Assembly (NCBI GenBank): GCA_963798485.1
Contig: CAWCTR010000013.1
Span: forward strand, 1-35,866
DNA length: 35,866 nucleotides
From: an uncultured delta proteobacterium
GTDB taxonomy: Bacteria > Desulfobacterota > Desulfomonilia > UBA1062
Direction: 5' to 3'
Shown here: positions 27,137-35,055 of the stretch, piece after piece
Numbering within the stretch: the stretch's first letter is position 1
Layout of the letters: the number at the start of each line of letters is the position of its first letter
Translations under genes and position numbers: made by a program
Notes under the pieces: model-generated
What the model was told of the DNA's origin: nothing
The model's database searches: none
Seen by the model: the letters and a program-made list of their open reading frames with translations, nothing else

Positions 27137-27361
27137 ATGGGGAACCCAGCTTTTCGCGGATAATAAGATGTTTTTTCACTTGAAAAATTTAAGAATATAG
27201 CGTAATTATTCTTTTTTAATTAAATGGTATCTCACCCCTGATCCCGCAACACATACCTCTTGAACGGCAAAAGATTGTGCACCGAATACCCGGATATGCA
27301 GCAGATGTGCTTTGGATAATTACATAGACGAAGCAAAAATCCAGTATCGTTATTGTTACGT
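27137..27361 (+). repeat. Conserved non-coding module copy A (promoter + attI-like end)
   Basis: Collinear with 34821-35055; TTGAAA-17-TAATTA promoter-like; ends GTTATT-GTTACGT. Confidence 0.8.
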
Positions 27362-27407
27362 TTCACATGGCACATCTGAACGACTTTTATTTTGATGGGA
27401 GGAACGT

Positions 27408-28109
27408 ATGTCGAACATTGAGAAAGCAATCTTGGGGGCTCTGGGAGGGTTCTCTGCAGTACTGATTAAGTTTCTCGGCCAGGACTATGCGAACGTGGTC
27501 GCTCACGCATCGAACCTCACAGCCGATCAGTTGCTGGCATACAAAATCGGCTATGGACTTCTTACCCCAATCCTCATGTTCTTGGGCGGCTTTATCGCTT
27601 GGATCTCAGACGAACAAAAGCGTCTCAAGATAGTAGCGCTGGCGGTTGCAGCCCCCGCGATGATCACTACTTGGGCGGGAGGTCAAAAAGTTGAATCAAC
27701 GTCTGCGTTGCAGGCCCTTCTTGTCCCTAGTGCTTACGCGCAGTCGCGTGATCCTGCCAAGGAGATCATCAACGTCGAAAACCCGGACGTCATTACGGAA
27801 AAAAACACTTTTCATCAAATCCAGAACGGTATCGGCGTTTTCTTCGGATACGGCAATCAACCCTCAAAATATCGGGTCATAGTCGGCTCCTACAAAGACA
27901 TGGACGCTGCTCAACAGTTTGCCGATAAGATAAATGCCGAGGACAGGACATTGAACGCCAGGGTCGGGCCAAAATCTCAACCAAACGATCCTTATTCAGT
28001 CATCGTCGGCGACTATAGCTCTCTGAGCGAAGCCAAGGAGTTACGACGAAAAGCCTTGGCCACTAAGTCCATCAAGAAAGCATATTTTTCCCCCGGGGCA
28101 CGGCGATGA
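27408..28109 (+). CDS. Multi-TM protein with C-terminal SPOR-like domain
   Basis: GGGAGG RBS; 3-4 TM helices; YRVIVGSY...AQQFADKI...YSVIVGDY...EAKEL...AY SPOR pattern. Confidence 0.75.
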   Translation: MSNIEKAILGALGGFSAVLIKFLGQDYANVVAHASNLTADQLLAYKIGYGLLTPILMFLGGFIAWISDEQKRLKIVALAVAAPAMITTWAGGQKVESTSALQALLVPSAYAQSRDPAKEIINVENPDVITEKNTFHQIQNGIGVFFGYGNQPSKYRVIVGSYKDMDAAQQFADKINAEDRTLNARVGPKSQPNDPYSVIVGDYSSLSEAKELRRKALATKSIKKAYFSPGARR

Positions 28110-28234
28110 GAAACTGAATGGCTGAATGGGTATCACCTTGCCTTTTGCCTGCCGGATTATGAAAAGCAAAAAACAAGACCCCTTTATGACCTCAGGGTCC
28201 AGAGCGGGCATTGAAACGTGGGTATGACGGTTGC

Positions 28235-28262
28235 CGTTACTGTTTGCCGGAAAACAGTAACG
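28235..28262. other. Perfect 11-bp inverted repeat
   Basis: CGTTACTGTTT-gccgga-AAACAGTAACG upstream of the GH13 gene; operator or hairpin. Confidence 0.5.
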
Positions 28263-28315
28263 AGTAGGTATAGGCCTCACCTCAGGGTTCGTGGAAGGGG
28301 TAAAGGAGGGGAAAC

Positions 28316-32943: not shown

Positions 32944-32955
32944 GGAAACCCATTC

Positions 32956-34305
32956 ATGAACATCTGGCAGAAAAAAGATCTGCAGTATATCTGGCACCCC
33001 TGTTCTCAGATGAAAGACTATGAGGATTTCCCGCCCATAGTGATCGAACGGGGCGAAGGGGCCTACCTCTACGATGTGGACGGCAGGTCCTACCTGGATG
33101 CCGTTTCTTCATGGTGGGTAAACCTGTTCGGGCACAGCAACAAGAGGATCAACCGGGCGATACAAAAACAACTCGAAGACCTTGAGCATGTCATCTTCGT
33201 CGAACTTCTCCCACAAGCCGGCCATCGAGCTCGCAGAGAGGATTGTCCGGATCACGCCCGAAGGCCTGAACAAGGTTTTCTTTGCCGACAACGGCTCCTC
33301 TGCGGTCGAGGTCGCGCTGAAGATGAGCTTCCAGTACCACCAGCAAACGGGCAACACAAACAAGACCAGGTTTGCGGCCATAACGGATGCCTACCACGGG
33401 GAAACGCTGGGCGCCTTATCGGTCGGGGATATCGACCTGTACAGCAGGATATACAGCCCGCTCCTGATGAACACCTTCAAGGCCACCGGGCCCGACTGCT
33501 ATCGCTGCCGTTACGGCAAGACCAGAGATGAGTTGTGATGTCGAATGCTTTACGGATATGGAAAAGATGGTGCTGCAAAACCACCACGAGATCTGTGCTG
33601 TCTTCATCGAGCCGCTCATCCAGTGCGCTGCAGGCATGAAGATGTACCCGGGCGCCTATTTGAAAAGGCTCAAAGAGCTCTGCACGCAGTTCGATATACA
33701 CCTGATCGCCGATGAGATCGCGGTCGGGTTCGGAAGGACCGGGCATATGTTCGCGTGCGGGCATGCGGGCATTAGCCCGGACATCATGTGCCTGTCAAAG
33801 GCCCTTACCGCAGGCTACATGCCCCTGTCCCTCGTGGTTACCACGGATAACATATACCAGGCCTTCTACAGCGACTATATCGAACAGAAGGCCTTCATGC
33901 ACAGCCACAGCTACACGGGCAACCCCATAGCCTGTGCCATTGCCTGTGAATCGCTCGACATATTCAAAGACGACGATGTGCTGGCGAAAAATGATCTTAA
34001 ATCAAAATTTATTGCCGAGATGGTGGGCGGGTTTGCACAAAACCACCCGTATGTCGGCGAGTTTCGCCAAATGGGCATGATCGGCGCCCTGGAACTCGTT
34101 GAAGACAAGCTCTCGCGAAAAGCATTCGCATGGGAGAAACGGGTAGGATACGGCATCTTCAAGATAGCACTGGCTAAAGGCGTGCTGTCTGCGCCCGCTG
34201 GGCAATGTCATCTACTTCATGCCCCCTTATGTCGTGGAGAAAAAGGATATCGAGCTCATGGCCGACGTCGCAATCCAGTCCATTCAGGAATACTTCGTGG
34301 TGTAA
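32956..34305 (+). pseudogene. bioA: DAPA aminotransferase split by three +1 insertions (~33201, ~33533, ~34188)
   Basis: [68 protein letters not shown]. Removing 3 nt gives one 448-aa frame. Confidence 0.9.
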
Positions 34306-34308
34306 ACA

Positions 34309-34814
34309 TCCCCTCGCCCCTTGGGGGAGAGGGACAGGGTGAGGGGGTGCATGAAAGAAGACTGCATGCTTATTGTCATTAAAATTCCGTAGGGGCATCC
34401 CTCGTGGCAGCCCTTTCTTATCCCCTCTGTGTCATTCCCGCGAAGGCTTCGAATCCAGGAAGCATACCAGTTCTATCCAATCTTTCTGTTCTCAACCCAG
34501 TCATTGCGAGGAGCCGAAGGCGACGCGGCAATCCCATCTTTTATTGTTACTTTCTTTTAGTGCTAAAAGAAAGTAACCAAAGAAAAGGCACCCCGTGACC
34601 CCGCCCTTCGGGTCCGTTCGCTCGTTCGTAAAATTCAGGCAGCGGCCAACTCGCTCCGTTTCACTCCGCTCAGACATGGGCCGCTTTTCCCCTGAATTTT
34701 CCTTCACTCGCTCACCGGGTTCAAGGGGGGAAAAGAAAAACACCTCTCTTTGATGTCATTCCGAGCGACATCAAGGAATACCGAACATGTAGGGGCAGCC
34801 CTTGTGGCTGCCCT
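34309..34814 (+). repeat. Cluster of REP-like palindromes
   Basis: CCCTC hairpin 34309-34347; GTAG REPs 34389-34414 and 34789-34814; GTCATT-type units 34431-34458, 34500-34535, 34755-34779; 15-bp perfect stem 34546-34577 heading a multi-hairpin unit to ~34730. Confidence 0.8.
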
Positions 34815-34820
34815 ATCGTC

Positions 34821-35055
34821 ATGGGGAACAAGTAAATGTGTCTCCTGATTTTCCGGATAATAACCTGATTTTTCACTGGATAATTTCAAGAATATAGCGT
34901 ATTATATTCTTTGTGGAATGGTAACTCACCTCTGATCCCGCAACACATACCACTGTAATGGCAAAATAGTGTGCACTGAATGTCCGAATATGCTGAAGGC
35001 ATGCTACGGATAATTATCGAGGCGTATCAAAAGTGCAGTATAGTTATTGTTAGAT
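34821..35055 (+). repeat. Conserved non-coding module copy B (promoter + attI-like end)
   Basis: TGGATA-17-TATTAT promoter (34877-34905); ends GTTATT-GTTAGAT, which fits GTTRRRY. Confidence 0.8.

Follow-up and report, generated by a model that had tools for sequence, protein, structure and literature searches.

Orphan attI-like modules, probable integrase-less copies of an integron region, in an uncultured delta proteobacterium

The stretch of DNA analysed here (the window) is contig CAWCTR010000013.1 of assembly GCA_963798485.1, 35,866 nucleotides from an uncultured delta proteobacterium. It contains two non-coding modules, A and B, which are about 205 bp long each and 78% identical. Judging from sequence comparison, these modules are likely to be integrase-less copies of the intI-proximal integron region of this lineage, i.e. 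of the recombination site attI together with an outward promoter, and would receive gene cassettes by means of an integron integrase (IntI) encoded elsewhere. Both belong to a family of attI/promoter modules that, as far as can be told from the genomes compared, is multicopy, dispersed, cassette-receiving and in part located within repeat-bounded insertion units.

The window is the whole of contig C13 of G000, a 4.3-Mb draft genome, which was analysed along with 14 congeners (genus set of 15 genomes) and a control set of 14 genomes. Family members were detected by a sequence-only model (R1) made from 10 module copies and specific to the 3' family core, attC sites by a model (R2) made from five attC sites of congener G008. 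Since R2 is made from one array, it is blind to other attC types. In total, 53 distinct module copies were retrieved and aligned, some of their loci being cut short. The heptamer at the module end (junction) was read for 36 of them; the other 17 were omitted, their ends being either not alignable or interrupted by an insertion sequence (IS).

Modules A and B

The original prediction placed two similar non-coding modules at 27137 and 34821. The similarity is real and begins somewhat further in, at about 27152 and 34849: repeat search pairs 27152-27204 with 34849-34901 (53 nt, 83% identity) and 27223-27358 with 34917-35052 (136 nt, 79%). Common to both modules are AAGAATATAGCGTA and an exact 20-mer, CTGATCCCGCAACACATACC, found at 27238 and 34932 and matched 0 times in 100 shuffles. 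As had been claimed, A and B agree in the distance that separates the 20-mer from the terminal GTTA (both pattern matches are 121 nt long), and alignments and domain matches bear out that similarity stops at the core, at GTTACGT (27355-27361) and GTTAGAT (35049-35055), to be followed by unrelated genes, one coding for a SPOR-domain protein and the other for a protein kinase. When whole G000 was searched with 27137-27361, only this segment itself and 34849-35052 were retrieved (78% identity, expectation value (E) 5e-42); no further full-length copy of A/B type was detected by this search. Features of the modules are as follows.

27152..27355, + strand: module A, orphan attI-like site with upstream promoter region; ends at G of GTTACGT
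27180..27209, + strand: promoter-like hexamers of module A, candidate cassette promoter (Pc), TTGAAA-18-AATTAT; consensus match only
27257..27364, + strand: family core of module A; R1 match, 80.2 bits, E 2.7e-23
27355..27361, + strand: junction heptamer GTTACGT of module A; putative crossover between G27355 and T27356, where homology to all other copies stops
34849..35049, + strand: module B, orphan attI-like site with upstream promoter region; ends at G of GTTAGAT
34877..34905, + strand: promoter-like hexamers of module B, candidate Pc, TGGATA-17-TATTAT; consensus match only
34951..35058, + strand: family core of module B; R1 match, 83.1 bits, E 3.4e-24
35049..35055, + strand: junction heptamer GTTAGAT of module B; putative crossover between G35049 and T35050

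In the family core of module A there is a near-palindrome, ATACCCGGATAT (27286-27297); its terminal core reads CAGTATCGTTATTG|TT. The terminal core of module B, GCAGTATAGTTATTG|TT, is one base off the attI core of a complete integron in G008. Folded as single-stranded DNA, both strands of A and B are no better than shuffled sequences (z-scores -0.31 to +0.92), and it is thus reasonable to conclude that they are not attC sites; by the same folds they are free of hairpins, as is characteristic of double-stranded attI. An adjoining intI is missing: neither an intI gene nor a remnant of it was found in the window, including the surroundings of A and B (tblastn, all E >= 1).

A 12-bp palindrome, ATATCCGGATAT, is kept in the core of all family copies (27286-27297 in A, 34980-34991 in B); one copy carries a doubly changed, still palindromic version, ATATACGTATAT. 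This palindrome may be a binding site of a regulator or an accessory integrase site.

Relationship to the integron attI position

A complete integron in G008 has a member of the module family at its attI position. This copy (L099 5699-5808, + strand) starts 68 nt away from the start codon of a divergent integrase gene matching TIGR02249 (L099 4666-5631, - strand), and after it come open reading frames (ORFs) with five palindromic sites of 57 bp between them. These sites have the classic form of attC, and 10 of the 23 consensus pairs keep their pairing through double changes. The module ends with ...GGTATAGTTATTG|TTATGCG. Its junction, GTTATGCG, is exactly complementary to CGCATAAC, which forms the R'' box of the first attC; such complementarity is the signature expected where attI x attC recombination has inserted a cassette.

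Of the 15 genus genomes, 8 have integrase genes scoring over the curated TIGR02249 cut-off; no such score was obtained in the 14 control genomes. G000 itself carries intI at three places, on contigs C5, C12 and C19. The genes at C12:6518-7525 and C19:174-1181 are 98.5% identical and share their flanking genes, in mirror order, the C19 copy being situated at a contig start; this pair is probably a repeated element that breaks the assembly. Two other integron types of the genus, at G007:C12 and G012:C51, encode IntI proteins 64-68% identical to that of G008, and the G007 protein is 94% identical to IntI of G000:C5. The attI regions of both are unlike the module except for their end, CTGTATAGTAAT(T/C)G|TTA, and the terminal core GTATAGTAATTG|TT is thus the sole part that the module has in common with them. 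In one case a trace of intI persists beside an orphan copy: next to the one at C21:218288-218397, on the side where intI is expected, an 82-nt segment (C21:218435-218516) aligns with the 3' end of intI (83%, E 2e-17).

At G000:C5 an element that codes for a tyrosine recombinase and a transposase of IS91 type (Y2) interrupts the core. Elements of this kind are located in the attI core or at its end at three places, namely G000:C5:10371-12650, G000:C21:216043-218280 (L064) and G003:C7 (L124), and start with the same sequence after two different module copies. One follows the module at C21:218288-218397, another a module in G003. They may target attI sites.

The original prediction had proposed solitary Pc-attI platforms without divergent intI, with crossover at GTT and possibly served in trans. 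It gains support from the G008 copy 68 nt from intI, from cassette junctions at module ends (see below) and from the three intI genes elsewhere in G000; linkage of the family to both IntI and attC is thereby found.

Alternatively, the module might be an unusual attC or a non-coding cassette, i.e. the attC of the preceding cassette. Its end in a GTTRRRY-like core fits this, as does what lies 30-45 nt upstream: a GGATAA(C/T) box and an 8-bp palindrome, the latter present in most copies. We nevertheless regard this explanation as extremely unlikely, for the G013 copy, like A and B, folds no better than shuffled sequences (z-scores within the range given above), R2 does not match the module, no other candidate attI is present in the 68 nt between module and intI start in G008, and the module does not occur in attC arrays of G000.

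The module family in the genus

Besides A and B, BLAST combined with a strict pattern yielded one further copy each in congeners G002 and G013, followed by an OGG-like gene and a DUF2441-like gene, respectively. A profile of these four copies retrieved six more partial copies in G000, sharing only the 3' part of about 105 nt. It is this 3' part alone that is common to the family, while the promoter-bearing 5' part, about 100 nt of additional upstream sequence, is confined to an extended subfamily of seven (A, B, L040, L004, L111, L127 and L140). The position of the promoter-like hexamers is kept in all seven. By eye, their layout (TGGATx-17/18-TATAAT-like) resembles a stretch beside the intI start in G012, which should be taken as a lead only.

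R1 matches were obtained in 8 of the 15 genus genomes: 25 in G002, 15 in G003, 12 in G000, 10 in G011, 8 each in G007 and G004, 4 in G008 and 1 in G013, numbers that include partial matches or reverse-strand echoes. G000 has about 10 family copies, two of them in the window, and the genus at least 53. In the rest of the taxonomic family, single R1 matches were found in 3 of the 37 other genomes. Scans with the strict pattern returned 11 stretches from public genome contigs, of which 2 were true, and 20 from metagenome contigs, of which 3 were true and of the G002/G013 module type; these scans yielded no new copies. Homology extends past GTT in no copy.

The bare core also heads at least three more loci in G000 (C7:190363, C7:262388 and C11:14960), two of them with a G012-like upstream region. 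C7:262388 and C11:14960, along with the end of C15, hold a second orphan attI-like family, akin to the attI region of the G012 integron; it is likewise found between inverted repeats of about 200 bp (see below).

The conserved stretch between promoter and gene is long, as would suit a transcript from the upstream promoter that is a non-coding RNA or leader or encodes a small peptide. A 14-codon frame, (M)C-T-E-Y-P-D-x-x-x-x-C-F-G-stop, is indeed open in the four closest copies, with TTG, GTG, ATG and ATA as starts. Of the explanations considered, this is the one we find least credible. No Rfam family reached the gathering threshold over the window and none matched the modules at E up to 1; what this relaxed search gave at the four module loci was a tRNA and one weak small RNA match, both outside the modules. 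The four closest copies showed no covariation in their RNAalifold consensus (term +0.75; 1 of 29 pairs compensated). The peptide frame contains stops in other members, e.g. in copies at C17:215k and C24:40k (alignment read by eye), and conservation is at the nucleotide level, over all three codon positions; no conserved ORF was found.

Candidates of other kinds were dropped since their spacing or context did not fit, as judged from consensus motifs only. This concerns a sigma-54 promoter, a guide-RNA end of IS200/IS605 type and a Tn7-like end.

Cassettes behind the modules

For 21 of the 53 copies, R2 detected same-strand attC sites downstream, in arrays of up to 4-5. These 21 of 53 other family loci, and not the window, thus have the attC required of attC clusters without an integron integrase (CALINs, at least two sites) or of single attC sites lacking integron-integrases (SALINs); A and B, with no attC in the window, belong to neither. 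In G000, the copy C17:187965-188078 is followed by a DUF4238 gene and attC (E 5e-9), the copy C17:215123-215232 by a 295-aa ORF and attC (E 3e-5), and the junction is complementary in both cases. Three attC sites each are present at L111 and L127. In L040, the G002 relative of A and B, the junction GTTAGCG pairs with CGCTAAC directly after the gene.

Module ends thus carry cassette junctions, and their complementarity is not confined to single examples. For 18 of 36 copies, the 3 kb downstream contain an exact NNNNAAC complement of the junction, nearly always at R'' of an attC hairpin. When junctions were replaced by those of other copies (2000 runs), mean count was 4.0 (standard deviation 1.8, maximum 10).

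At all copies but one (52 of 53), a same-strand ORF of at least 40 codons starts between -15 and +200 nt. All these ORFs differ, which supports the original prediction. No Pfam family was assigned to 20 of the 38 ORFs lying outside an earlier scan. The others comprise GNAT, HicB, TIR and HNH proteins, methyltransferases, DUF4238, DUF5677 and DUF2971 proteins and peptidases. Defence models were matched by 9 of 43 downstream ORFs, and by the kinase of the window in addition.

These observations would be accounted for if the attI core, GTATAGT(A/T)ATTG|TT, were a double-stranded site bound by an integron integrase encoded elsewhere in the genome. By means of the integrase, a circular cassette would recombine with the core through its folded attC and enter directly after the G, and the module promoter would then transcribe the promoterless cassette gene. 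Insertion of cassettes after the G would explain why homology ends at GTT, why each copy is followed by a different gene on the same strand and why the kinase ATG lies 9 nt off the core. The SPOR-domain and kinase genes of the window may themselves be cassettes, and IntI may still act on the copies in trans today.

A same-strand gene after 52 of 53 copies would also be expected if the module were promoter-operator of a regulon or a "mobile promoter", with the palindromes ATATCCGGATAT and ATACTGCAAAAGTGCAGTAT bound by a regulator and homology ending at the transcription start, without any recombination. Palindromes are dense in the module, the compensated one mentioned above included, and 5 nt separate a TATAGT box from the point where homology stops. 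On its own, such an explanation is very unlikely, as it leaves unaccounted for the complementarity between junction and R'' (18/36 against about 4 expected), the position adjoining intI in G008 and the core common to otherwise unrelated attI regions. A regulatory role may well coexist with the role of attI.

Repeat-bounded units

A repeat of about 200 bp precedes module B; to the right of this module, the place of a second copy would lie past the contig end.

34540..34745, + strand: ~200-bp repeat, left copy for module B; elsewhere in inverted pairs around module-plus-cassette units

G000 has 11 long copies of this repeat. Inverted pairs of it enclose module and cassettes at L040 (1.4 kb, one cassette), L111 (3.5 kb, three attC), L127, L108, C7:123770-127092, C11:14254-15335 and C7:261984-269014, which makes seven units in total. 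In the stretches fetched, no ~200-bp repeat was present near intact integrons. At the site between asnS and tRNA-Gly, a repeat-bounded unit is present in 3 of 12 genomes (G000, G002 and G003), and the site is empty in the other 9. The unit of G000 at this site is the 7-kb one at C7:261984-269014 (L172), with attI facing the opposite way.

Landing pads and their cassettes between inverted ~200-bp repeats would probably move as non-autonomous transposon-like elements, and we propose that movement of such repeat-bounded units explains dispersal of the pads. Mobilisation by REPs (repetitive extragenic palindromes) of GTAG type, which had been suggested, is not borne out: flanking repeats that hint at mobility are the inverted ~200-bp repeats.

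The unit L172 contains a GIY-YIG gene, two genes of group II intron reverse transcriptase/maturase and one ORF without Pfam family. Neither a transposase nor, by R2, an attC was found in it; group II introns may have disrupted its attC sites.

Genes and repeats around A and B

Neighbourhood of the modules comprises the following features.

27044..27072, + strand: GTAG-type REP hairpin upstream of module A, with a 12-bp stem (27038-27069 by repeat search); outside the module
27408..28109, + strand: SPOR-domain gene 3' of module A, coding for a 233-aa membrane protein (PF05036, E 3e-9)
34783..34814, + strand: GTAG-type REP between the ~200-bp repeat and module B
35064..35864, + strand: Ser/Thr protein kinase gene 3' of module B (Pkinase, E 2.9e-27); cut by contig end

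A GTAG-REP is thus located ahead of each module, in agreement with what had been noted before. The kinase ATG lies 9 nt beyond the core of module B. The protein resembles single-gene anti-phage kinases (mad6, E 4e-38; PD-T4-6, E 9e-32), and in the 14 congeners it has no orthologue, only paralogues of at most 34% identity. No homologue of the SPOR-domain gene was found in these congeners either. The next gene after it, coding for an 804-aa protein of the alpha-amylase family (28316-30730), has no orthologue in the 14 congeners at E 1e-100. Synteny stops directly after icd (window 26912-30984), and in the five relatives compared the DNA 3' of icd maps to other G000 contigs or nowhere. Module A may be situated at a rearrangement breakpoint.

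In the 207 nt after the SPOR-domain gene, no remnant of the ~200-bp repeat was found (local alignment score 10-12, shuffle mean 9.5-10.5). The gene is followed by a hairpin, GTTACTGTTT-GCCGG-AAAACAGTAAC (about 28236-28262), whose GTTAC...GTAAC form is also that of the hairpin terminating the ~200-bp repeat; beyond this form, comparison of the two revealed no significant similarity.

Points against and the possibility of a relic

Several observations speak against A and B as integrase-less attI platforms that receive cassettes in trans. No attC was found in the window (R2 with filters off, E up to 10), and the kinase gene runs off the contig, so that cassettes at the two window copies are putative. 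The lack of attC after the SPOR-domain gene had been pointed out in the original prediction, and ACGTAAC, the complement of GTTACGT, is not present downstream of this gene. For module B, a scan of G000 for ATCTAAC with attC-like sequence gave unconvincing candidates only, one of them 63 nt from the start of C27. Module A has no flanking ~200-bp repeat, and its core shows two additional substitutions (CCAGTATCG vs GCAGTATAG), so it may be a decayed copy. As to the promoter, sigma70-like hexamers predicted earlier are present in both modules and are no more frequent than in shuffled sequence; the promoter is a candidate one.

At the level of the family, 18 of 36 junctions are without complement and 32 of 53 copies without R2 attC match. 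The module adjoins only one of the 10 genus intI matches over cut-off. G002, with its 25 R1 and 15 attC matches, has no intI over cut-off, and activity in trans is therefore not general. In the 400 nt fetched upstream, the ~200-bp repeat was found for about 12 of 53 copies. There is no clear target-site duplication; only a possible AAATA was seen, in the G002 unit at asnS/tRNA-Gly. Every genome is a draft metagenome-assembled genome, and contamination of G000 is estimated at 7%.

Some of these points suit a reading in which A and B descend from attI platforms and now serve only as promoters or 5' regions, the SPOR-domain and kinase genes not being captured. This would be in line with the lack of attC in the window, with the diverged core of module A without flanking repeats and with the region after icd, which is rearranged relative to all relatives examined. 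The gene of the amylase family, too, is unique to G000, and the neighbourhood may hence stem from rearrangement rather than capture. Because module A has neither attC nor flanking repeat, and its neighbourhood differs in every relative, this module in particular is perhaps a relic at a point of rearrangement. For the pair, however, we consider loss of the attI role rather unlikely. Both junctions are of GTTRNNN form, typical of cassette starts in the family; the core of B differs in one base from the core in use in G008; both genes are strain-specific; and the kinase starts 9 nt after the core, in the same manner as cassette genes at other copies.

Relationship to known systems

Integrons are described as consisting of one attI and one integrase, with only the first cassettes after Pc well expressed (PMC4889954; 10.1101/2022.09.11.507474, in the portions of both texts available to us). 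CALINs are defined in the available part of Cury et al. 2016 (PMC4889954), according to which attI is single, located beside intI and not known for most integrons; as origins of CALINs it proposes loss of the integrase, rearrangement, secondary sites and activity of ISs. SALINs and attG are defined in the accessible part of 10.1101/2022.09.11.507474, where attG has a 5'-GWT-3' consensus and is unlike attI in both sequence and structure. By the same portions of these two sources, origin of CALINs and SALINs is still debated. Natural multicopy attI sites were not described in titles or abstract openings of the literature searched.

Like a regular attI with Pc, the family has a homologue between divergent intI and first cassette (in G008), is double-stranded and devoid of hairpins, has its crossover at G|TT and carries cassettes in one orientation behind an outward promoter-like region. 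Unlike it, the window copies have no adjoining intI, and the module is multicopy (up to about 25 matches per genome) and dispersed. Many family members are 1-5 attC cassettes without nearby intI and are in this respect similar to CALINs and SALINs, as which IntegronFinder would class them; in contrast to those, the small arrays are headed by a conserved attI/promoter module, and the origins published in the texts as available, insertion at attG included, involve no repeated attI. Insertion at attG likewise places cassettes outside a complete integron and spread over the chromosome, whereas the target here is a conserved module of 105-205 bp homologous to attI, unlike attG as characterised in the accessible part of its description.

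Bracketing of an integron part by two inverted short non-coding repeats has a precedent in class 1 integrons. In the available part of Domingues et al. 2012 (PMC3575428), four reports are listed of such integrons bordered by MITEs (miniature inverted-repeat transposable elements, 439 bp) or integron mobilization units (IMUs, 288 bp), structures thought to be mobile by transposase acting in trans. Those are single clinical integrons, whereas the units described here contain attI and cassettes without intI, occur many times per genome, belong to an environmental anaerobe and have no established target-site duplication. The family is thus a variant of the integron theme, not a new kind of system.

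A lineage with a multicopy attI/promoter module would demonstrate that attI sites can be dispersed, and some CALINs and SALINs would then be full platforms minus the integrase, with expression of cassettes possibly spread over many loci. A further-reaching view, which we put forward tentatively and hold to be possible without preferring it, is that of a distributed integron: dozens of integrase-less pads of attI and promoter, many of them in transposon-like units, would be served in trans by one to three integrases, the cassette of each pad being first and expressed and the pads being movable, so as to seed new capture sites. If this is true, many captured genes, a good share of them defence-like, could be expressed simultaneously, whereas deep in one array they would be silent, and many CALIN and SALIN elements would be given a concrete origin. 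For direct tests the family supplies the attI core (GTATAGTAATTG|TT) as a defined site, along with the attC sites and integrases that go with it. Its cassette genes, mostly unknown and in part defence-like, make up a catalogue drawn from an uncultured anaerobe.

Other features of the window

Upstream of the ~200-bp repeat, a bioA-like aminotransferase gene (Aminotran_3) is split into two overlapping ORFs, 32956-33531 and 33528-34382. Between them they match profile positions 8-65 and 176-376; the gene is frameshifted, a pseudogene or misassembled. The first ORF of the window contains three tandem-like repeats of 102 nt (245-664), and a 55-nt repeat is located ahead of two neighbouring ORFs (1530-1584 and 3088-3142). 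Three tandem repeats of 20 nt, TGGCCGCTTTG..., are found at 12250-12314.

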